A DNA stretch of 20,000 bases. It comes from Welwitschia mirabilis. Its lineage: Eukaryota. The notes beneath the pieces were generated by a model. That model had not been told where the DNA came from. It searched no databases and worked only from the letters and a program-made list of their open reading frames with translations. The stretch covers positions 978,144-998,143 of the forward strand of contig JBOZIK010000001.1 of NCBI GenBank assembly GCA_051453625.1, given 5' to 3'. A program made the position numbers and the translations under genes. Below are positions 1,079-20,000 of the stretch, in pieces; within the stretch, counting starts at the first letter, position 1, and each line of letters opens with the position of its first letter.

Positions 1079-4000
1079 TCAGGCTCTATTAATAAAAACC
1101 TTGGGAAAGGTCTCTTGCATGTATTCCCTGATTCATTTTGTAAGTAATTCATTCTATACTTTTATTTTTTAGTTGTGTAGATTTGGTACTTAAGACTTTT
1201 TGTGGTTGAACCATAAAATTTAAATTGAATTTGGGCATGATATGTTACTAGTTCAAGGTGTAGTCTTGGTTTCTATCTTTATGGTATGATTTTATAGTGC
1301 TCACATAAAAAACTAGATGTATTCAAGACATCGAGGGAGGAAGCTCTAGTTTGTATGCTAGATTCCTAATATTTTTAATAATCTTAAAAGGACTGCAGAA
1401 TCATGAGGCTGTTTGCTGTAATTTTTCATTTTCAAGGAGTTTCTTTCTGGATTGATTTTTAATACTTATTCACCTATCTGGAATATGCAGGTATGATGCT
1501 TTTGATTGTAATATTTCTTATATCGATCTTGTGATACATGTTACTATCCTTTTATTTTATTGATTACTTCTTCCATTATTTTTAATTTTGAAGGTACTGT
1601 CTTTTTTAATCTTTATGAAGGATTTGACCATGTAATAGATGTAGAACAGTTTCTTTCATACATTGATTTGAATGATGAATAGAAGATGGAAGTTTGGAAT
1701 GTCTAGTAATAAGAAAATTCTGCCAGATGTAGGTAGTTCTTCCATTGTTTGAGCCTTCTTTTTACATAATACCTTAAAGTGTCTTTTAATATACAATTTA
1801 TTCTTTCTATTTAGTCATCTGTTTCTAGGTGGTAAGCGGTACTAAAACTGAGCTTGATACCCAAGTGGTGGAAGAAGCTTCAATAAAATTCAAATAAGAA
1901 CTTTGGATCTCGATTAGATACTATAATCTAAGGTGCACCATGTAACCTAAAAACTTCCTGTACAAAATGAAGAGTTAGTTCTTCTGTTGTATTAGTACTT
2001 TAAACTATAATAAAAAGAGCCATCTTAATTAACATGTATACACAAACAAAAAATGCATGATGCTCTTTATTAGTGAGGGATAACCTGGTGATAAAATCCA
2101 TAGATATCTCTTCCCATTTTCATTGTGGTATTCCCAATGGTTGAAGGAGTCTAGTAGGTCTTCCTTAGTTGATTTTTATTTGCTAGCATATAGAATAGTT
2201 GTAGATGTATTATTTAAATCTACCTTTATTCTGGCAAAAAATAGTATTTCCATAATTGGTGGTAGTTTCTGATAAATTCTTGATGTCCTACATAAGGAAC
2301 TTCATGTAGTTTAGATATTAGTTTCCTTCTCCATGGGCCTTGTGGAATGCACAATCATCTTGTCTTTATAAAGAATCCATCTCATGAGATCATGTATGTG
2401 TCTACTTATTTTTCTTCTTGAACCTATTGGTATATGTCCTTGAAGTATGGATATTATTCCAAAGAAGTTTTGAGAAAAGTGGATAAATCAGATGCGATAC
2501 TGATAGCTAACATATACCACATACTACTTAAAGTATATACTACTTTATTCTCTTATATTGCAACTTGAAATCATATTCTATAAGTAACTTACTCCATCTA
2601 CTTTTTTGTGTATTTAGAAGGGGTTATTTTTAAAAGCTTTTATGGTCTATTTTGAGAAGGAATTCACTCTCCATAAGGTCATGCCTCCAAACTTTCAAGG
2701 CATTCACTATGGTTAATAGTTCCAAGTCATGTACAGGATAGTTCTTCTCATGCTTGTTTAGCTTCTGTGATTCATATGTAATCATCTAATCATCTTAGCT
2801 GAGCATGAATCCTATTCCTTGGGTAGAAGTATCTGTGATGATTGTAAATGATTTGTTTGCATCTATAATCTTGAAGACCAGTGCAATTGTGAGTAGCAAC
2901 TTCAATCTGAGAAATGCCTCATTGCATTTATCATCAAAGCAGAATGTATTTGTTGCTTTGGTCAAATCTATTAATGATTCTATAAGTTGAGAAAATCCTA
3001 GAACAAATTTCCAATAGAAGCTGGTGAATCCTAAGAAACTTCATACTTGCACGGCATCTTTTAATTCTAGCCATTTCCTTATAACTTATACTTTGGTTGG
3101 ATCTGTTGTAATTTCTTTTCTGAAGATGATATGTCCCAAATAACTAATTTCTATCTAAAATAATTCACATTTACTTAATTTTACCTTGAATTTATGCTTG
3201 GACAAAACCTGTATTACTTTTCTCAAATGTGTAATATGATCATTCTAGTTTTTAGAATATATTAGGATATCATCTAAAAAGACAACCACAAATTTATCTA
3301 AGTATGAGTGAAAAACATCATTCATTAAATTCATAAAAGTAGCTAGAGCATTTTTCAAAACAAAAGGCATTACTGCAAATTCATAATGTTCATATCTTAT
3401 TCTAAAATTAGTCTTGTAGATGTCTTTATTCTTGATATGGATTTGATGGTAGCCAGATTTTAAATTAATATTTAGGAAGTACTTGTCTCGTTGCAGTTGA
3501 TCCAATACATCATTTGATCCATGGTAATGGGTATTTATTCTTGATGGTTACTTTGTTGAATTGTCTATAGTCAATGTAGAGTTATAAGGTACCATTCTTC
3601 TTTTTAACAAATAACACTAGTGCCCCCAGGGTGACACACTAGGAAAAATCTTTCCTTCTAACAATAACTGTTTAACCTGTAACTTCAATTCTTTTAATTC
3701 TACCATTAATAAATGGTAAGGTTCTCTGACTATTGGCTATGCTCTAAGGATTAAATCAATTGCATGCTTTACTTTCTCTTGGGTGGTAGCATTTTTGAAT
3801 CTTTAAATACATCTAAAAATTCCTTTAATTATTTTGGTATAGATGGATGTTCTTTAGGATCTTCTACTTATACTAGGTGATAAACACCTAATTTTTTAAA
3901 TAGCTTTAGCAATTTGTTTGAGTGAGATTAAAAAAATCTTCTTACTCTTTCCCTTCCCTTTAAAAATTTATTTTTTAAACACATGGAATAATTACAAGGT

Positions 4001-4379: not shown

Positions 4380-5369
4380 GATTCTAAAGAGTTTGAGGCC
4401 AACTGTGCTGAGGAACATTTGACACTCATGATTTAAAAGGATAGTTCCTAGCAATGTAGCCTCTCTTGTGGCACTTATGAAAGGTAAGATTTGTTCTGTA
4501 TGATCCCTTGCTAGTGGTGTGGCTGAAGGAGGGTGTCTATCTCCTTAGTGTGATTGATCTGTCCATCTATTCTCTTATCCTTAGAGGTAGTGCCTTATTT
4601 TCTGATAGGAATCCTCTATAGACTTAATTTTCAAAGTATGAAGGACACTTTAAAGTTTAAATGACAAAGCATCAATAAAGCTATTAATTAGTTGCTTTTC
4701 TAAAAAATTCTTTTTGTACTTCATAAGACACTAAAATTCTAACCAATGTTCATCTAACGAGCTTTTACCTAGGTATAGGCATTGGAATTCCACTATTTGG
4801 TCTTCAATAAAATCTTTTGGAATGAACTTCTTTTTAAATTATTCAACAAAAGTATCCCACGCTATCTTGTGTAGGTGTTTCTATTGGCACCTGGACCATT
4901 ATTCTTGTGTGTTCCCTATAGAAAATGCACTAGCATATATGCACTGTCTTTCTAAAGGTATATTTCAAAGTTTAAAATAGTTCTCTAATTGCTAAATTCA
5001 TGATATAACTTTCTCATTTGTTCCAGCCTTTCCCTCATAGGTTTTTAAATGTATCATCCTTGCAAGTTCTTCTCCTTCTCGTTGTTTAATGTTGGAGTGG
5101 TTAGACTTATTTATTAGAAAATATTAAGAATTGAACTCTATATTTAATAACCTCATTTGGATGTTTTAGAGGTCAACATTAGTGGTAGGAGTATGCTGTT
5201 CTGAAGTAGAAAGCAATTCTTGAGATACCCTTTAATTAGATTCTATAAGTCTTTGTTCCAGGCGAGTAACAAGGCTATCGAGCCTACTAGCTAACTATAC
5301 ATTTTATGAGCAAATATTATCAATATGATCATCTAGTATATCAAGACACTCATTAACCCTGTGTTTCAT
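4380..5369 (-). pseudogene. gag: Ty3/gypsy gag remnant with decayed CCHC zinc knuckle
   Basis: KTYEGKAG..I*QLENYFKL (~4970-5045) and WDTFVDNLKKKFIPKD (~4815-4860); the knuckle remnant FHKCHKRGYIARNYP (~4440-4485) lies just upstream of the protease. The start position is approximate. Confidence 0.8.
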
Positions 5370-5642
5370 GATACACCAGTGGATTCGATCTCTTCCTATA
5401 CCCATACACCTTTGTCTGATTCTACAAGTACTCTCTTTCTCTTCCTTTACTTTCTCCTATGGTGGTGCTTCCTTTTTATAATTTTGCTGATGGGAGTTGG
5501 GGACCTATAACTATTTGATAGTTAAGAAAATGGTTAGAGAGAATAGTTTCTTGTAGTTATCATAACAAACTTACTGATATGACAAGCCATTTCCACTAGG
5601 GTCTATGTGTTGCCAGATGTTCAGAGATGATGCTGAGGATTT

Positions 5643-6168
5643 AAGTGTGATGTCAGGTGATTATGTATATTGAGTGTGATGTCAGGCCCTCAAGTATGAC
5701 ATCGGTCCATCAAGTGCAACATTGGATCATCAAGTATGACATTAGATCCCTCATGCTAATGGGTAAAATAGGTTATTTTAGAGAGGCAACAGATGGTTCT
5801 GTGCTTGTAAGTGACAAGTGCAACATTGATCACCCAAGTGTGATGTTATCTAGCTAAGTGCGACATTGGGCTTCCTTGGTTAAATGGATAGAATAAGCAA
5901 TTTCTTTAAAAAATGATGGAATTTGGGCCTATGAAGGAAAAGTGCAATGTCGGGCATCCAAGTGCAACATTAGCCATCCAAGTGCAACATCAGACTTTGA
6001 GGGGCTTCAGAATGCTGCACTGAGTTTGATGAGATTAAGTGTAACATCGGGTACCCAAGTGCGACGTCGACTATCAAAGTGCAATGTTGAACTTTAAGGG
6101 GCTTTGGAATGCTATGTTTAGTTTGATGAGATCAAGTGCTATGTTAGCCTTTCAAGTACAACATTGGA
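5643..6168. repeat. Interrupted tandem array of ~16 x 20-bp units, consensus CAAGTG-CGACGTCG-GGCACC
   Basis: AAGTGYRAYRTYR units at 20-bp spacing (e.g. 5692/5712/5732, 5940/5960/5980, 6037/6057/6077), grouped in ~97-124-bp higher-order blocks. Intact CGACGTCG at 6062-6069. Confidence 0.9.
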
Positions 6169-6478
6169 GCCCTTTAGTTTACTGTAGTTCAGGGTTTTAA
6201 TTTTTTTGTAGTTAACTTAAGTTGATTGAATTTAACTAAGGTTTGATTAACTATGTTTAACTATTATTTTAGAGTTAGGTTAAACCATGATCCACCACTA
6301 TAACTAACTTCATGATCCCCTCATTTTTTTCTTCTTTTGTCATATGCCTCTATAATCAAATTGGTAATTCTTTTATTTATTCTTCTGCTTGTCTTTTTCT
6401 ATTTCATTTTTTTATTTTAATATTTTTCTTTTCCTTTTCTTGCTTTTTATGCAAGTCCTTCCAATGCCTACTTCTACC

Positions 6479-6486
6479 TATAAATA
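6479..6486 (+). promoter_or_regulatory. Putative TATA box of the antisense accessory gene
   Basis: CCTATAAATA, 56 nt upstream of ATG 6535. The paralog has CCTATAAAT at 18135 with the same 56-nt spacing to ATG 18191. Confidence 0.55.
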
Positions 6487-6534
6487 CAAGTTCCCTCTAG
6501 CATTTTTGAATGTACTTCTTCCTCTAGTTAAGGT

Positions 6535-8851
6535 ATGGCTTCTAGACTTTACCTTATCATTTCTTGGCATTCTACCAATGTCAGATCTGTAGAATTGGAA
6601 TTATAGCAACATACTTCAGATTAATGGTTTTTTTGGATCTTTTCCTCTAATCTCTTAGTTCGTTGTGGCTATTCATCGTTCTATGTTCATCATCATACTA
6701 TTCTTTTCATCTTAGATTCCTTATATTCTTCCTTTGATTTAGATACTAATACCATTACTCATCCTCGGCATAGTCCAATTCAAATTTCAAAGGAAAGCAT
6801 CAAGGTGGTCTTCAGAATAACTGAATGTGATCGTATTCCTTCCAAAGTATCTCATTTTGATAAGGAGTTTTGTTACTTCTTGGAAAATTGCTTAGATGAT
6901 TTTGTATGTGTGTGGGAGATGGATATCCACTACCATGAAATTTCTACTGTCAATTTTACCACTTCATATTTTGTAGCTTCTGGAGAGCTAATTGCTTATA
7001 GGGCCTTTTTTCATGATTGAGTGAGTGAGGTTTTCATCTATATAATTCACTTGTTCCCTTTTATGAATAGTGGAGTTTCTTTTTGGGCCTTGTTTATCTA
7101 TTCTTCTACTCTTTTCAGTTGACCCACTTGAAGAAGATAAATGATAGGGTAAAGTGTTTTTATGAACATATTTTATTAAGTTTATATTTTACTCCTACGA
7201 GTCTAGAGGGTCTATAACTATCTACAGCTATTTCTATAGATTCTTCTTATATTTTCTCTCCTCATGAGATTCTTTCTTGATCTTTATTATATCTTTGTTC
7301 TTCCTCATCTATGGAGAGTGAAGGCTCTAGGAGTTATGACTCTAAAGAGATATCTCAAGGTACTTTTTCTAGTCTATCTAAGGTATGGATTTTGTTGAGG
7401 AATATTGCTATTAAGTATATTTCTGATAACTCTAATTTTTGGCATTTGGTGTTTTGTAGAAGAGTAAAGCTTTGAATCTCCTGACTCTTCCCATTAAAAA
7501 CATGATATAGCTCTAGTGAATCACCCTATGCCTATGAAACTAGAAGATAGAAAGGATGCATACCTCAGCTTTTCTCGGTGACACTAGTCTTGTGTGATAT
7601 TACCCACTAACATCTCTTTCTTTTTTTCCTTCTTCTTCTTTTTTTCTTTTTTCTTTTTTTGTTTTCTTTTGACATAGGTATTTGTTTACTTTATTTTAGA
7701 TTTCTCATGTAGAAACTTTGGTAGAGGAGTATATGGATTTTATCCCATGGCCTCCAAAGAAGATCTCTCTTCGGCAGCTAAGGGAGGAGTGCATTATTGT
7801 AAGTGAAACTTTTTCTTATGTCCCTTCCACTAGCTTCTTCATGGATTTATTTTTTCCTTTCAAATCTCAATGAGAAGAGGTACTTAATGATTTTGACACC
7901 TAAATAGATTAAGATGGACATGTTCTATTCCACCTCCTATTTTTAGCCTTTAGGTCAAAGTCCTCCTATTGCTCGCTCTTCTCTAAAAACTTCTTGTTAC
8001 CCACTTGTAGCTTCATAATTTATTGTTAATGAATAAGGCCAAGTTTCTTATCGTACTTATCAGCTTCTGTTAATGGTGGAGACCTTGTATCCTAAGATCA
8101 AGGAGTTAATAGACCAGATAGGGGATTACCACTCCCTTTCTAGTCTTTTGCATGCACAATTTACACATCCTTTATGCCTAGATGATGTCTACACCCATCA
8201 ACGATCTAAGGTAGTAGATGTATCATGGGACTTTGAATGTAGCCGTTCTTCTTGTTTCACCCCCCATTGTTCTTCATAGTAAGAGTGACCTCCTCTACTC
8301 TGAGATCTCTATAATATGGTGGATATGATGAAGTTATTTTACTACATGGATTATCATAGGATTAAAGAGTGCAAGTCTATGAGAGATTTCCTTTTGATGT
8401 TGGAGAATGAGGTGGAGAACATGCATTTGTTAGAGAAGAAATTACAGGTAGATGGGCAGATGCTTCACGAATGATAGAAAAAAATTAGGCTATTTTATCT
8501 TCTTATCTAGCAAAGATTTAGAGGATGATTTGGACTTGTGTAGATCATTTGTCCATTACTATTAATGACATAGATGTGCTGTATCATGGCAGGGAGCTCT
8601 TGAAAGAACATCTATTAGGAACTTTAGTTGCTTACAGTAAGATTCATATGAAGCTCTATAAGTGGTTGTATCTTATTACTAAGGCAGATTCTTTAGCTGC
8701 TTCTTCTTCAATAGAAATCAGTATTTCAATGGTTCCTACACAACCTATTAGGATGGACATAATTCTAGGTGGAACGAAGCCTTCTATCCCAGGCATCGAG
8801 GGTCACAACCCTGTTATTTTTTTTGTGGAGGATCTTCTTTCTCCTCATTAA
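6535..8851 (+). pseudogene. Decayed antisense accessory gene of the retrotransposon (unknown function; N-terminal globular domain and helical C-terminus), probably spliced
   Basis: One frame runs 6535-~7110 (MASRLY..IFSSNL..KESIKVVFRI..FWA; includes ORF 6805-7020) with only 3 stops. Further segments at 7700-8470 (includes ORF 8073-8279) and 8525-8851. It aligns codon-for-codon with 18191-20000, and most stops in one copy are sense codons in the other. Confidence 0.75.
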
Positions 8852-9026
8852 TGATGTTTTATTTTTCCTTATCAAGATGTCATGCATCCTATTTTTGCTA
8901 ATATCTTATTTCCTGTAATCACCATATTCTTGTTTATTGATGTACTATTTGGACTTTTAGCTGGTTTTAATTTATAATAGAGTTTCTTCCTTGTTTTTCT
9001 TCAAGTATAGTTTACCACTTATTATT

Positions 9027-9039
9027 GGCTTTGATACCA
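9027..9039 (-). other. Primer-binding site complementary to the tRNA-iMet 3' end
   Basis: The minus strand reads TGGTATCAAAGCC, 2 nt after the 5' LTR end. Confidence 0.92.
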
Positions 9040-9041
9040 AA

Positions 9042-9518
9042 TGTAATATCCCATTTTACTATTTTTGGATTACTTTACATAAAAAGAAACATTTAAAATA
9101 ATATGCCAGAATCCATAGGAATAATAAAGAACAATTTAGATAGAAACATGATTTTATTATTGATAGTAGCAGATTACATTTCACATCATTAATAAACAAC
9201 CTTGGAGTAGTGGTTATAAGTAAATACGTGGACTATGACCTTAGTTCTCCCTCCTAAGACCATTGGAGATTACCCAAGGTTATGGACTAGGACCTTAGTT
9301 CCTCCTCCTAGAACCCTTGGGGATTAGCCAATGTTGCCGTTGGTTACATCCACCCAATTCATCCACCTCCTTCCCCAATAATGCCATAGGCTTATATTAC
9401 ATAATGAAGGGACACATCTTTACATATTTGGATTACACCTATTCACATATCTTGTTAATCACACTTCATTAGTGCTTAACATACATCATTATTCAATTAA
9501 TAATTTTGGAACATTACA
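9042..9518 (-). repeat. 5' LTR (477 bp), with an internal 54-bp tandem duplication
   Basis: TGTAATATCCC...GGAACATTACA; homologous to 498-913; adjacent to the PBS. Confidence 0.95.
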
Positions 9519-12500
9519 ATTGTCCTTTATTTCTTAAGATATTATTCCAGAGGAAGATCCATCCTAACATCCTTTATATTTCTTTCACCATTAGATAATC
9601 CTAAAAAATGTGCTTAGTACCTTTCACTTATCTGCAAATCCTACATTGCATTTTAATGCTAAGGATCCTCTGCCTTAGCCTTTCTGCTGTTAAGAACTTG
9701 CCCTTTATTAGCATCTATTTAAGAATCCTATACTTTTCCATTAGATATATTTTTAAAGATTTTATTAGAGAAATTTTAATGCCATATTTATTAATCATGA
9801 GTACTTTGAAAGTACATGGCACAAACTTGATTAATCATTAGTCCATACCATTCACTTAATAGAAAGCCCACCTGTCAAAATCTTCTCCAAAGCTTGAATA
9901 ACTTTATCAATTACATAATTTTTTATTCTAGGAAGAGTTTTTTCATTTTTTTAGTGTTTGATATTTATACCTATATGTTGCCTTAGCTAATTCTTAGTTA
10001 TTTGAATTTGTTCTAATTCATTTGGTATTTTATCATTGAGAATTCTAAAACACTAAAAAGAGATGTTGACTTTATTGATTTTCTACGATGTTTGATATTT
10101 AATCTATTTTCTAATCTTAAAAATTGAGGTCAAAAGAAAAAATTCCTCTTCTTTACATCCTAGTCTAAGTATTTTCTTCTTAAAATATTATTTCAAGACG
10201 TAATTTCCCCTACTTCTATCTTTAAGATTATTTTATTATAAGCTAGAAAAACTCTATTGTTAATATCTTAGATCCTCCATCCTTCTAGCTCTACAATCTT
10301 AGGAATATATTTCCAAACCAATGTGTGATGCCTACATCCTTTTTTATCCTTACTTTAGATAAAGCTCTAAATAATTCTATTAATCTATCTTTTTACTTAT
10401 TCTAGGAGGATTCTTGTGGCCATACTACATCTAGTTATGAATGAGAGAATTAAATTATCTAAAATAGTTTTTACCTTTTTAGATAAGAAAATAGATTTCT
10501 AATTATTACATCTCTTCTCAGGTTTTTGAATTAGTTTCTTCCAAGTTGTAACATATCTCTAATTGAGCATCAGAATTCATAAGTTGGAGTTATGCTTTTC
10601 TCCTTTATTTTTCCTAAAATTTTTCTAATAGCCTTTTGAAATCTATTCCATATGTGAGTGAAATAAGCTTTACTATTTAACTAGTTGACCTCTAGATCTT
10701 CTTCTCACCCAAACTTATCTAAGACTTGCTTAATTACTCTGATTTTTCTAATATTTATCTTTAAATAGATCACTGTGTCATCTATGAAGTGATTAGAAAG
10801 AAATTTTCTACTATGGATGCTAATATTAATTCCTATTGCTTCTTTTCCTGAAAGAAGTTAAGGGTAATTATAAATAATTAAGGATATATAAACAAGTAAG
10901 GAGATAAGAAATCACCTTACCTTAGTTCTTCACTTAAATAAAATAAACCACAGATTTTTTGGTTGATCTTTAAGCTAAATTTTACTATTTTTTACATGTT
11001 CAAAATAAGATGAATGAATGTTCTTGAAAATACATTCTGATTAAGCACCTATTCTAAGAAATGCCAAAACATACTATCATAAGCCTTCATAGTGTCTAGA
11101 TTTAGAATAAAGTTTTTCATTTTCATTTATATTAGAAATTAGAACAACTTATGATTTAAAATGATTTGGTCTAGCATTCCTCTTCCCTCAATAAATCTCA
11201 CTTAATTTGATCTTACTAATTTTAATAAGAGTGATCTTATTATTTTGAGTAGGAGCTTAGAAAAAAATCATTTAAGTTACATTATAAACTTTATTTAATC
11301 TATAGTCTTATTCTTGCCAAGCCTTTGTTTTCTTAGGGATCATTCTAACATTGGTATTATTCCATGTATAAGTCATTTCTCCTATTTTCATTACCTAATT
11401 AAAAGCATTTTCAATCTAAAATCTAAAATAGAACTAATATTTCCTAAAGAATTTAACCATCCATACATCCTATATAAGACATTTACTATTCTTCATTTGA
11501 GTGAAAACACTCTAAATCTCATTTTAATTAGTTAAATTCAAAATATCTTCTTCTCTTCAAGATTGTCTGCATGTGATTGACATGTTTGTTTATTCTTTTA
11601 CTTACCAAAGCTCCTAAAGACTATTAATAAAGGATTTTGATATATCCTTTCATAATTTGATTTCTTCTTTCTTCTACATCATAGTAATTTTATTTTATTG
11701 CCTTCTTTAACTAACTATATTAAAGAAAAAATTGGTATGCTTATCTCTATATTTGAGCCAATTAATATGGTCTCTTTATCTTTAGTAAACATCCTTCTAG
11801 AATTTCAAGGCATGTAATTTCTAAGGCTTTTATCATTATTCCCATGGAGGTCCTCTCTATTTTTTTTACATTTCTTGAATTACTCTGAGTTCTGATTTGA
11901 TTATCTCCTTTCTATTAAATTTTTGCCTTTATTAATTGCTTCAATCCTTTAGTCAAGACTTCAAGATGCTTAGATTTTGATTCAAGGCTAAGATTGGGTA
12001 TCCTTAGGACTTCTGATAGTTATGGTAGATAAAATCTTCTATTTCTTCCTCATTAAGTAATATCAATTCAAAAGAAAATTAACTGTGTTTTAATTTCTTC
12101 TCATCTAATGTTAAGATGATTAGTTTGTGACTTGAAAACCATCTATCCTTTCCTTATAGCCTACATTTTTTTTGGGAAATCATAAATTTGGGATTAGAGA
12201 TCTATCTATCTTACTTGAAATTTAGTTTTATATCTCCCTTCTATTAGACCTAGTGTACTAAAGTGTATGCAAATAAAGGTTGATTAGATTAAGATTAGAA
12301 ATAAAGTCATCTAGTTCCTATGCACTAGTTAGGTTCTAGTTTAATCCTTATTACTTATTCTACTCAAAATGAGTTTGGTTTAAGTACCTAAATCATGTAC
12401 TTCTTGATTTTTTACTTTTCCTCTTTTCCTAACTTCCTACAAGGTATATAGATTAGCTATCCACCAATTTTTGATGCTCAAAATTTGATACCATCTTAGA

Positions 12501-12759: not shown

Positions 12760-13977
12760 TAGATTTATTAATATTCAAGAGAATGCTTTATAACCTAGTA
12801 TCTATATTTTTTAAGCTTCATTTTTTGCTTTAGAAAGTTTCATAGGTCTACCTATGTTTCCATCATGCTTTTTTTATTGCTCATGATCCCATCTATTTCT
12901 CTCAAGTTTATTTTCATCCTAGTCGACCTCAGAATTAGAGATAAGTTATTAGTAGATAAAGACTTATACTATTTACTCATTTAAGAATTTATTCTATCTA
13001 ATTTCCTTAAAATGAGCTTTCTATTAGTTCTTTCATCCTTACTAGATTTATGGGAGAAACTGGCTCTAGACATACTTCTTTACTTACTTCCAATTACTTA
13101 TAATTCTCATCTCCTCTATTTACTACTATAGTTGATTCTCCTTATTAATTTATTAGAGTATAAATTTTTATCTGTCTTTGAATTACTTTAAAGTCCCCAT
13201 CATTCCTTTTCCTAAACTTGTAAATCTTTCTTAAATGTCGAAGCTTTTTACATTAGGTATAAGATTTCATTAAATATGAGATTAACATATGCCCTATTTC
13301 CATACTATTCATAGGTATAATTACTTAACATAGAAGAAAAGTATAGGACATGTCCTACACCAATACAAAAGCTACAAGAAATGAATAGATTTTCATATTC
13401 AACTTCTATCATATTAGTTCCATGTTTATATAAAATCTTAAAATCCTCAACTATTTTATAAGTTCAATGTGAATCCATGATAAGATATTATTAGTGCTAT
13501 TTTAATTTCTTGTAAGGTTGTAAGATCCAATATAATCTAATCTCTAAATTATAAAGAAAGCTTCATTGTGAAGGATTAATTATAGAGGAATAGACTTGTG
13601 GCTCTTAATCTAACTTGTATGAGTAGCTTCTATAAAATTTTTCTATTTGATTCTAGTTTTCATCAAGCCAGCACTAACCCATGCACTCCAAACAACCATG
13701 GTCTTTTGGCCATGAAACTATTCAAATATTTCTCAAAGCTAAATCTAAAAAGGACTAGTCCTTAGGCTAGGGCTATTATCTACACTTCACTAATGCTGGT
13801 TCATTGGATAGGTACCCACTTCTTGATGACTTCCATGCTTAGATGAGGACCTGAAGAAATAAAGTAGCCAATAAAACTATACCTTAGATTTTCCTTTGTA
13901 TTAATATAGTGATTTAATACAACCCTAATCTTGAAATGCCCATTTTATTGAAATAACTTTATGGCCTGAGTGGCCAT
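12760..13977 (-). pseudogene. L1-type LINE ORF1 remnant (DUF4283-like domain + CX2CX4HX4C zinc knuckle)
   Basis: SFIGYF..KKWVPIQ* (~13800-13880), PWLFGVHGLVLA (~13668-13702), EYENLFISCSFCIGVGHV (~13348-13400). Directly upstream of ORF2 on the same strand; ends approximate. Confidence 0.82.
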
Positions 13978-16480: not shown

Positions 16481-16928
16481 ATGAACATATCAGAAAAGGA
16501 TATTGAAAAATACAATGGTAAAAATTTCCATTCTTGGAAAATCAAGGTGCAGCTAATCTTAATTCATAAAGGTGCATGGAAAGTTGTAAATGGTACAATA
16601 CCTAAACCAATAGATGCATCTAAAATTATGGAGTGGGAAATGCTATATCAAAGGGCTATATCTCTAACTGGCCTTGCACTTGAAGATAATTCCTTACACT
16701 ATCTTGATTTAACCAAGACTTCAAAGGCAAACTGGGAAGAATCATTTATTTGGTGCAAGTGGTCAAGAGGCTAAGAAAATATTGAAGAATAAACTTTATA
16801 GCTTAATGATGGATGAAGGCAAAGGCATGGATGAACATATAAACTACTTTCAATCAATTTTAACTCAACTTTCTTCTATCAATGCTAAAGTGGATGATGA
16901 TGATGCCAAAGCCATCTTACTTAATAGT
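16481..16928 (+). pseudogene. gag: Ty1/copia gag N-terminus (DUF4219 / Retrotran_gag_2-like), frameshifted and truncated by the gap
   Basis: IEKYNGKNFHSWKIKVQLIL..W..V.G..PKP..; after a frameshift LKNKLYSLMMDEGKGMDEHINYFQSILTQLSSINAKVDDDDAKAILLNS, typical of copia gag. Confidence 0.92.
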
Positions 16929-17028
16929 NNNNNNNNNNNNNNNNNNNNNNNNNNNNNNNNNNNNNNNNNNNNNNNNNNNNNNNNNNNNNNNNNNNNNNNN
17001 NNNNNNNNNNNNNNNNNNNNNNNNNNNN
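16929..17028. other. Assembly gap (100 N)
   Basis: Exactly 100 N, the usual placeholder for a gap of unknown size; the two sides belong to different elements. Confidence 0.98.
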
Positions 17029-17077: not shown

Positions 17078-17828
17078 AAGTATGACGTCGAGCAACTATG
17101 TATTTTAAATATGATGTTAAGCCCCTAAGTATGATGTCGAGTCCTAAAGTATAACATCAAGCCATCAAGTGCAAAATCAGACCATCAAGTACGACATCAG
17201 ATCCCTTATGCTAGTGAGTGAAATAGGTGATTTTGTAGAGGCAATGAATGATTCCAAGCTTGCACGAGATAAGTGCAACATCAGGTACCCAAGTGTGACA
17301 TCGGGCTTTCAAGTGTGATGTGGTCACCCAAGTGTGATGTCGGCCACCCAAGTGCGATGTCATCTTTTCTTAGATAGGCAAATAAAATTGGTGATTTCTT
17401 TAGAAAATAGTGGAATTTGGGCCTGTGGAGGACAAGTGCAATGTCAGGCACCTAAGTGCAATGTCAACCATCCAACTGGTACATCGGCCACCCAAGTGTG
17501 ATGTTAAGCTTTGAGAGGCTTTGAAGTACTGCATAGGGTTTAGCAAGATCAAGTTCAATGTCAACCTCCCAAGTGTAATGTCAGCCACCCAAGTGTAACG
17601 TTGGCCTTCAAAGTGTGACAGTAGCCTCTAGTCTTATAACTAAAGTGAAATGTTAGCCATCTAGAAGTGTAATGTTTCCCTTTCAAGTGTGATGTCAACC
17701 ATCTGGGAGTGCAACATTAGCCTCTGAAGTGTGACATCAGCCTCTGGAAGTGTAATGTTGGCCATCTGGGAGTGCAATGTTGTCCTTCTGGGAGTGCAAC
17801 ATTGGCCTTCTAAGTATAACGTTAGCCT
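17078..17828. repeat. Expanded tandem array (~28 units, 20-22 bp) of the CAAGTGCGACGTCG motif
   Basis: Same units as 5643-6168, plus a run of ~21-bp units at 17640-17828. Confidence 0.9.
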
Positions 17829-18190
17829 TTTATTTACTTGTAGTTTAGGGCCTTCATTTTTTTAAAGTTAACTTGAGTAGTTTTACATTTAATTATGGTT
17901 TGGTTAAATATGGTTAACTATTTTTATGGCGTTACCTTAAACCCTATTCCACCGCTATAAATAGCTCTATGATCCCTCATTTTTTTCTTTTTTTTGTCAT
18001 GTGCCTATATAGTTAAATTGGTAATTCTTTTATTTATTCTTCCACTTATCTCTTCCTCTTTTACTTTTTATTTTAATATTTTTATTTTTCTTTTCTTCTT
18101 TTTTGTGTAGATCCTTTCATAACTTGCTTTTGCCTATAAATTTAAGTTTTGTCTAACATTTTTAAATGCACTTCTTCCTCTGGTTAAGGT

Positions 18191-20000
18191 ATGAATTCTA
18201 AACTTTGCCCTGTCATTTCTTGGAATTATACTAATGTTGGGTTTATAGAGTTGGAAATATATGAATGCACTTCGAGCAAGGGTTCTCTTAGATCTTTTCC
18301 TCTAATCTCCTAGATCTCTGTGGTTTTCCACACTTCCGTCTTCATCATTCTACTATTCTTTACATCTTAGACTCCTTGTATTCTTCTTTTAATCTAGATA
18401 CTGACACCATTATCCATCCTTGGCATGACCTAATTTAGATTTTGTAAGAGAGTATCAAGCTAGTCTTTGGAATAAGTGAAGGTAATAGAGTTTCTCCAAA
18501 AGTCTCTCATTCTAATGAGGACTTTTTTTACTTCTTGGTAAATTACTTAGATGATTTTATATGTGTGTAGAAGATGGATACCCATTGTCATGGGATTTCT
18601 ATCACCAATTTTACCACTCCATATTTTGTAGCTTATGGGGAGATAATTACTGATAGAGCTTTTCTTTATGATCAGGTGAATGAAATTTCCATCTATATAA
18701 TTTAATTATTTCCCTTTTTAACTAGTGAAGTTTTTTTTGATTAGGCCTCAGTTATCTGTTTTTATACTCTTTCTCAATTGACCCAGTTGAAGAGGAATGA
18801 TGATAGGGAAAAGTGTTTCTATGGTCATCTTTTATTAGGTTTATATTTTTCTTCTATAGGTCTAGAGGGTCTTCAACCATTTAGGGATATTTTTTTAGAT
18901 TCTTCTTATGTGTTGTATTCTTATGAGATTCCTGCTTGATCTTGCTTACATCCTCATTCTTTCTTATTTATAGAGGATGAAGGCTCCTGAAGTTACGACC
19001 CTAGAGAGACATCTTAGGGTACTTTTTCTATTTCATTTGAGATATGGGTTTTATTGAGAAATTTTACTATTAAGTATATTTTTGATAACTCTGGTTTTTG
19101 GCTTTTGATGTTTTACAGATGAGTAAAGTTTGGGATCTTGTGACTCTTTCCAACAAATATGTAGCAAAGCTCCTGTGAATTGCCTTATGCCTGTGGAATT
19201 AGAAGATGAGGAGGATGCATCCCTTAGCTTTTCTCAGTGACACCAGCCTTGTGGGGTATTATCATGTTATCATCTCTCTCCTCTTTTATTTCTCTTCTTC
19301 TTTTCCTTACTTTCTTCATTTTTTTTTGACATAAGCATTTTCTTATTTTTTTTAATTTCAGATTCCTCGTGAATAGACTTTGGTTGAGAAGGACATGGAT
19401 TTTACCCCATGGCCTTTGAAGAAGATCTCTCTTTAGTAGCTAAGAAAGGAGTGCATTACTGTAAGTAAAACTTTTTCTTTTGTTTCTTCCACTTGCCTCT
19501 TCATAGATTTATTATTTCCTTCTGAATCTTAAGGAGAAGGGGTACTTAATGATTTTGACACCTTAATGGATCAGGGGGATATGTCCTATTCTACCCCTTA
19601 TTTTCAGCCTTTAGGTTAGAGTTTTCCAGTTTCTTGCCCTTTTCTAGAGCCTCCTCACTACCCACTTGTAGCTCCACAACCTATTATTACCAAATAGGAC
19701 CAAGTTTCCTATCACACCAGTTAAATTTTATCAGTGATGGAGACTTTGTACCTTAAGGTCAAGGAGTTAATGGACTAGATAGGGGATTACTAGTTCCTTT
19801 TCAGTCTTCTACATGCATAGGTCATGCATCCTTTATGCCTAAATGATGGCTACACCTATTACCAATCTAAGACAAAAGATGTATCACGAGACTTTGAATA
19901 CAGTTGTTCTGCTTGTTTTACCCCCCATTGTTCTTTACAGTAAGAATGGCCTACTCCACTCTAAGATTTATACAATATGATGAATATGATAGAGTCGTTT
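18191..20000 (+). pseudogene. Paralogous antisense accessory gene, running off the window end
   Basis: An indel-free frame at 18301-19041 (SNLLDLCGFP..ESIKLVFGI..FD*ASVIC..CFYGHLLLGLYF) and another at 19362-20000 (MDFTPWP..METLYLKVKELMD*IGDY..). Most stops are explicable by single C>T or G>A changes. Confidence 0.75.

Follow-up and report, generated by a model that had tools for sequence, protein, structure and literature searches.

Extra genes are common in plant long terminal repeat (LTR) retrotransposons, none of them has a proven function, and most of the antisense ones described lie 3′ of pol in the Tat/Retand lineages. Extra open reading frames (ORFs) in chromoviruses were reportedly found to be rare by Steinbauerova et al. 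in 2011. Retroviruses also encode antisense proteins, HIV-1 ASP being one of them. The locus considered here lies in a 20,000-nt stretch of Welwitschia mirabilis DNA (assembly GCA_051453625.1, contig JBOZIK010000001.1, positions 978,144 to 998,143 of the forward strand), referred to below as the window, and consists of the leader of a Ty3/gypsy element, that is, the region between its primer-binding site (PBS) and gag. The element, a genuine 9-kb LTR retrotransposon, occupies the minus strand of the window; the reading frames of interest are on the plus strand, antisense to gag-pol.

The REXdb survey of Neumann et al. (2019) distinguishes four classes of extra ORFs (eORFs), one of which, eORF-5′R, denotes a 5′ position and a reverse orientation; most eORFs are described there as heterogeneous and devoid of domains, with a CDD match in only 21.4%, and the survey used a cut-off of at least 250 intact codons (PMC6317226). 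Antisense genes located between pol and the 3′ LTR are represented by gene23 of maize Grande and by the ORFs of rice RIRE2 and Silene Retand, all from the non-chromovirus Tat/Retand lineages, and 97% of the Retand clusters encode Transposase_28 (PF04195) (PMC7264820, PMC11963269). Antisense genes with their own promoter have been described in print (PMC7264820), and HBZ of HTLV-1 is listed among the antisense proteins of retroviruses (PMC11963269). An extra ORF in the 5′ position, the Tekay 5′ aORF, is found in sunflower Tekay group 2, rice Retrosat-2, and the Tekay elements of maize and sorghum; its sunflower version, ORF(+), is in the sense orientation and encodes a proline-rich, mostly disordered protein with a nuclear localization signal, and this ORF is conserved within one subgroup only (PMC11728184).

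The reading favored here, with a probability of about 0.58, is that the ~3.7-kb leader of the old W. mirabilis element carries a decayed accessory gene that belonged to the element and ran antisense to its gag-pol genes. The window contains two copies of this leader, copy 1 in the element itself and a second, more decayed copy 2 that extends to the end of the window (Table 1). Stops common to both copies are likely to be ancestral, and stops private to one copy are likely to result from decay. Judged in this way, the plus strand of the leader likely held a protein-coding gene in the common ancestor of both copies, given a 249-codon run free of shared stops, frame shifts that match indels, the codon-position composition, and the closed frames of the minus strand. 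The ancestral gene, as reconstructed from these two sequences, likely included an ORF of ~249 codons from the ATG at 6535 to the stop at 7278 and further coding segments at 7700-8279, 8304-8471, and 8522-8851. An earlier, sequence-only reading of this DNA had put the distance between the PBS and gag at ~3.6 kb, which agrees with the present estimate of ~3.7 kb, obtained from the PBS at 9027-9039 and a gag frame that is traceable by eye to ~5330.

The first of these frames, ORF-A, runs in phase 1 until 7114, where copy 1 has lost 1 nt, and in phase 0 thereafter. Counted from the last shared stop (6529), which is two codons upstream of the ATG, it contains 249 codons without a shared stop; all 10 stops within it are private (4 in copy 1 and 6 in copy 2), and its longest piece that is still intact covers 6625-7020 (131 aa). 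When the six frames are pooled, runs free of shared stops average 22 codons, and the longest ones after the 249-codon run are 141, 104, and 101 codons. The other five frames contain 4 to 13 shared stops each over 6619-7114. The minus-strand frames have 4-8 shared stops each over ORF-A and are therefore closed, so the plus-strand frame does not simply mirror a sense ORF. Downstream, the segment at 7700-8279 begins at a conserved pyrimidine tract followed by YAG (7698-7699) and is followed by shared stops at 8280 and 8301. Both changes of phase, from 1 to 0 at 7114 and from 2 to 0 at 7915, coincide with 1-nt indels, as the indels predict. In the best frames of three segments, 3 stops are shared and 25 are private, whereas the remaining 15 frame-segments contain 95 stops of either kind (Fisher p 6e-5, an optimistic value because the frames were picked for openness). 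The claim of the sequence-only reading that the two copies complement each other's stops holds up, since the stops in the frames it named are mostly private to one copy, and the peptide strings that it quoted are present; the complementation applies up to 8339, as 8340-8851 is covered by copy 1 only.

The codon-position composition of the open segments points in the same direction. For ORF-A (247 codons), the chi2 value of 25.1 is reached by 0.65% of stop-free Markov simulations, and for the six stop-defined segments pooled (605 codons), the value of 60.6 is reached by none of 1000 such simulations. In this pool, the frequencies at codon positions 1, 2, and 3 are 0.22, 0.12, and 0.19 for G and 0.33, 0.35, and 0.46 for T. 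Periodicity is strongest in the segment at 8304-8471 (chi2 33.9), and the segment at 8522-8851 gives a chi2 of 24.3 (p 5e-4). Restricting the count to the columns where the copies agree leaves a chi2 of 26.1 (p 2e-4) for ORF-A1, compared with 1.7 (p 0.95) for the upstream spacer at 6140-6475; in the same columns, 7281-7481 and 7482-7604 show no enrichment of G at position 1.

The region between ORF-A and the next open segment, 7281-7699, could represent an intron, or else a spacer separating two ORFs. At its end is a T-rich low-complexity tract at 7605-7699 (65% T), which is what had previously been taken for a Pro/Ser-rich linker. The YAG at 7698-7699 is conserved in both copies, stands directly before the next open frame, and resembles the 3′ end of an intron; the phase-0 stop at 7461 is carried by most genomic contigs. 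The only in-phase splice join with GT and AG conserved in both copies uses a donor at 7021 and the acceptor at 7698. The frame past this donor is, however, free of shared stops for 86 more codons, so there could have been one spliced gene or two to three ORFs. The single frame of ~700 codons proposed earlier has to be given up, as every plus-strand frame has shared stops within 7278-7699, and further ones occur at 8034, 8280, and 8301. On the sense strand of the element, the T-rich tract corresponds to an extended purine-rich sequence in mid-leader and could be regarded as a candidate internal polypurine tract. Tandem-repeat arrays detected by TRF in this part of the element are limited to 5690-5993 and 7615-7670, with none in 6535-7280 or 7700-8851.

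Copy 2 is collinear with 5673-8339 of copy 1, where the comparison of the copies ends; the two are 77.5% identical and differ by 12 small indels over 2.2 kb. It is bounded on the left by a gap of 100 N (16929-17028) and on the right by the end of the window. The Kimura two-parameter (K2P) distance between the copies is 0.28, compared with 0.17 between the LTRs, which indicates that most of the divergence is decay that followed insertion. Both leader copies in the window are dead, and the divergence between them is neutral decay. The TATAAA motif and the ATG of ORF-A have conserved counterparts in copy 2, at 18135 and 18191, respectively.

The translation of the leader, read through its stops in copy 1, begins with a hydrophobic part rich in F, S, I, and L (GRAVY, the grand average of hydropathy, 0.25), which is followed by more polar segments; the stretch at 8304-8471 is rich in L, M, E, and K. 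In the ESM Atlas, 8522-8848 had no usable match, and the best score for 6625-7017 (0.84) was at chance level. The likeness to PMD/Transposase_32 that had been suggested for this protein was not borne out, as the Pfam search of the plus-strand frames of both copies gave no match to PF10536 or PF20167 at E ≤ 1. The same search gave no match at E ≤ 1 to PF04195 (Transposase_28).

A number of results weigh against the favored reading. The ancestral-frame analysis rests on two copies only, one of them cut at 8339. Shared stops remain at the four positions 7278, 8034, 8280, and 8301, and a continuous gene would therefore need introns or an ancestor that was already damaged. The plus strand contains 42% T (and 25% A), which lowers the density of stops and makes translations rich in F, L, S, and I. 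There is no excess of third-position mismatches when the copies are compared (37, 39, and 36 by phase over 6619-7114), and the ratio of nonsynonymous to synonymous substitution rates (dN/dS) is 0.48 in frame and 0.48-0.82 in the control frames; with two dead copies, this test is without power because most of their divergence is decay after insertion. Pfam, run on all plus-strand frames of both copies, returned nothing at E ≤ 1 except for chance-level matches to DUF1467 (0.42) and zf-HIT (0.14). When 163 aa of ORF-A were compared by HMMER with 1.84 billion protein representatives, 0 matches resulted. In word-index searches, none of 2 candidates for the ORF at 6625-7020 (near lengths) and none of 147 for the one at 8522-8848 (longer lengths) were retained, whereas the reverse transcriptase (RT)-RNase H of the element, used as a control, found 947. 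A PDB sequence search with three segments yielded nothing below E 0.08, and of the 266 and 128 pattern matches from two metagenome scans with two ORF pieces, none was confirmed. AlphaFold2 models built without an alignment had pLDDT (predicted local distance difference test) scores of 42.5 and 46.4, too poor for fold searching, and the recognition values of a protein language model were low (1077 and 1824). Finally, about a quarter of each of three RNA-seq runs with the same species label was read, which gave 14, 8, and 27 reads over 8 kb; no read was at least 95% alike, and almost none fell on the leader. This near-absence fits dead copies and is silent on the ancestor.

A coding past need not mean that the gene belonged to the element. 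The block at 5640-8900 could be a captured fragment of a host gene with introns, or the relic of some other mobile element, that became fixed in the leader of a single subfamily and was once coding without ever serving the retrotransposon. The ORF is indeed unrelated to gag-pol, and the open segments have a GC content of 0.33-0.38 compared with 0.27-0.28 in the spacers at 6140-6475 and 8852-9023; moreover, the four shared stops suggest that damage was already present in the common ancestor, and an N gap stands where any junction of copy 2 with gag-pol would lie. Such an origin is nevertheless unlikely. At its ends, the block has no convincing direct or inverted repeats (the search gave arms of 20-28 nt at 79-81% only), which speaks against a separate nested transposable element with its own termini, a possibility raised by the sequence-only reading itself. 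A conserved host gene or a known transposable element would also be expected to have a relative in Pfam or the protein databases, and none was found in the searches listed above. The order of tandem repeats, spacer, and ORF is the same in both copies. In addition, the block is repeated in the X2 DNA contigs (18928 pieces), where the depth of the leader is 68-1144 per bin, of the order of that of gag-pol (65-2822), and where each single difference inside 6300-8532 recurs in 4 to 88 contigs; this makes the block a repeated component of the genome and not a one-off capture.

That the leader was never coding is improbable, more so than a foreign origin. Its open frames would then have arisen by chance from a T-rich antisense strand, and the two copies would resemble each other merely through a recent common ancestor. 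The base composition given above favors this account, and so do Markov simulations of 2.2 kb, in which the longest ORF averages 85 codons and reaches a maximum of 186; there is likewise no selection signal, there are no homologs, the folds are of low confidence, and the region was originally chosen for looking open. What chance leaves unaccounted for is the 249-codon run, set against a pooled mean of 22, together with an excess of private over shared stops that is confined to the best frames, a codon-position composition beyond that of any of the 1000 stop-free simulations and not seen in the neighboring spacer, and frame changes that coincide with indels. Least probable is an antisense RNA that started at the TATA box, ran into the PBS and the 5′ LTR, and acted by pairing with the genomic RNA, its ORFs being incidental: antisense non-coding transcripts of retrotransposons are known (PMC7264820) and, as no AATAAA-type signal is found on the plus strand at 8840-9100, between the ORF and the LTR, such a transcript could reach the LTR, but it would leave the frame-specific dearth of ancestral stops and the codon-position periodicity unexplained, and no transcript was seen in the RNA runs.

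An element-borne antisense gene would have worked as follows. Its transcription would have started from its own TATA-type promoter (6479) and proceeded toward the 5′ LTR, and splicing may have connected its coding segments. An antisense-strand intron could outlast retrotransposition because the genomic RNA is the other strand, as proposed here. The product would be a lineage-restricted orphan protein, hydrophobic toward the N terminus and more polar and helical toward the C terminus. On the analogy of gene23 of Grande, the antisense ORFs of Retand and RIRE2, and the antisense proteins of retroviruses, it might have modulated the expression or silencing of its own element; the antisense transcript would, in addition, be complementary to the 5′ end of the genomic RNA. 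The sequence-only reading, which had already proposed an antisense gene with its own promoter and had placed an ATG 56 nt after a TATA box on the opposite strand, is upheld as to the TATAAA at 6479 and the ATG at 6535, both conserved in copy 2, and as to a gene that likely was coding; the putative promoter amounts to the conserved TATAAA, and no transcript evidence was found in the RNA runs. A far more specific version is about as improbable as a leader that was never coding: an undescribed chromovirus accessory gene that was spliced, had its own promoter, lay antisense in the 5′ leader, and arose de novo on the T-rich strand, with an intron preserved by its strand and with an orphan product, hydrophobic at its head and helical at its tail, through which silencing or expression of the element was controlled.

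Table 1. Features of the Ty3/gypsy element and of its leader copies, in window coordinates
Feature	Position	Strand	Remarks
3′ LTR	498-913	minus	direct repeat with 5′ LTR; TGTAATG at start, ATTACA at end
Polypurine tract (PPT)	914-926	minus	precedes 3′ LTR
Integrase C-terminal SH3 (SH3_Tf2-1)	1433-1281	minus	Pfam; integrase C-terminal feature 1155-1433 overall
RNase H (RT_RNaseH_2, RT_RNaseH)	2935-2573	minus	Pfam
Reverse transcriptase (RVT_1)	3523-3125	minus	Pfam; RT and RNase H together 2573-3523
gag (Retrotrans_gag)	4928-4665	minus	Pfam
Tandem-repeat array, 20-42-nt units	5640-6140		between gag and antisense promoter
TATAAA, candidate promoter element	6479-6484	plus	56 nt upstream of ATG 6535; motif only
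ORF-A (likely ancestral)	6535-7280	plus	ATG 6535 to TGA 7278, common to both copies
Stretch without coding signal	7281-7699	plus	shared stops in all plus frames; no periodicity of G at position 1
Open segment	7700-8279	plus	phase 2 to 1-nt indel at 7915, then phase 0; 15 private stops, 1 shared (8034)
Open segment, 56 codons	8304-8471	plus	phase 0; contains helical-looking LENEVENMHLLEKKLQ; copy 1 only
Intact open frame, 109 codons	8522-8851	plus	phase 2; last antisense coding segment (putative); copy 1 only
PBS TGGTATCAAAGCC	9027-9039	minus	two bases past 5′ LTR
5′ LTR	9042-9518	minus	TGTAATG at start, ATTACA at end; 54-nt tandem duplication at 9229-9335
Second leader copy	17128-20000	plus	tandem repeats, spacer, TATA, ATG, ORF region; more decayed

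The element itself has the domain order gag-RT-RNase H-integrase, which is the Ty3/gypsy order, as established by Pfam searches of read-through translations with X at stops; the protease and the integrase core remained below the Pfam threshold. Its PBS is presumably of the initiator tRNA-Met type, from whose motif it differs by one mismatch. At 85% identity between the LTRs over 417 aligned sites (K2P 0.17), the insertion is an old one. The 54-nt unit that forms a tandem pair in the 5′ LTR is single in the 3′ LTR, leaving a 56-nt gap in the LTR alignment. About 230 nt without an ORF separate the end of the integrase (~1155) from the PPT (926), and Rfam and tRNA scans of the window gave no match.

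The sequence-only reading described the element as a chromodomain element. Pfam finds no Chromo match in it at E ≤ 0.5, but the C terminus of its integrase aligns with three relatives (P0022, P0096, and P0029) for the first 18-20 residues of what Pfam assigns to Chromo in them, after which the alignment decays; chromovirus status is therefore likely and not proven. The 947 relatives recovered with the RT-RNase H are headed by plant polyproteins of 43-49% identity, and with this as the best value, the protein collection searched contains no close relative of the element's family for this region (2573-3523).

Other observations concern the surroundings of the element and the spread of its leader. 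Just beyond the 5′ LTR, 9598-9747 on the minus strand gives a weak match to zf-RVT (E 0.0065), and 13603-13839, also on the minus strand, gives a weak match to DUF4283 (E 0.0021); together, they suggest a decayed non-LTR element of the LINE (long interspersed nuclear element) type, beside which the Ty3/gypsy element inserted. A fragment of a Ty1/copia gag (DUF4219, Retrotran_gag_2) is located at 16514-16928 on the plus strand and is cut by the N gap at 16929-17028. The tandem array of copy 2 (17130-17810) is ~180 nt longer than the array at 5640-6140, and many joints of the X2 contigs fall inside the array. Of the words sampled from 5300-9100, fractions of 0.92 and 0.86 occur in the sequencing runs of organism codes A and B, respectively, which indicates that the same insertion, or a near-identical copy, is present under both codes; no RNA run was listed among the runs containing these words.

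As both copies in the window are dead, the value of this locus lies in pointing to a family that has many copies in the genome, younger ones included. An antisense gene located 5′ of gag in a chromovirus-like element would add to the positions and lineages in which such genes are known and, if the intron were confirmed, would provide a natural case of an intron kept through retrotransposition by its orientation. The likeness to the antisense proteins of retroviruses is an analogy only: they are read opposite the genomic RNA, from a promoter apart from the sense LTR promoter, and their function is regulatory rather than structural; in contrast to the ORF discussed here, to which they have no sequence relation, they lie at the 3′ end or overlap env.

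With Grande, RIRE2, and Retand, the W. mirabilis element shares an orientation antisense to gag-pol, a long non-coding internal region with tandem repeats, and a proposed promoter of its own; it differs in that their genes are 3′ of pol, whereas the frames described here are 5′ of gag, have no PF04195 match, and accompany an integrase whose end aligns to chromodomain-bearing relatives. The Tekay 5′ aORF is likewise an extra ORF that lacks a Pfam domain and occupies the region from the 5′ LTR to gag, in a chromovirus; unlike it, as described, the ORF in W. mirabilis is antisense and has a hydrophobic N-terminal part (PMC11728184). There is agreement with the eORF-5′R class: the ORF region (6535-8851) is located 5′ of gag (from 4928), between it and the PBS (9027-9039), is reverse in orientation, has no domain, and does not consist of tandem repeats according to TRF. 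The difference is one of intactness, since the survey counted at least 250 intact codons, whereas the intact piece here is 131 aa and the frame of 249 codons without a shared stop is inferred from two copies (PMC6317226). The atypicality that the sequence-only reading attributed to this locus was thus overstated, with eORF-5′R already listed (PMC6317226) and 5′ extra ORFs of chromoviruses already described (PMC11728184). The W. mirabilis case fits a class that is rare but already in print, and stands apart from the well-studied examples in position, lineage, and protein.

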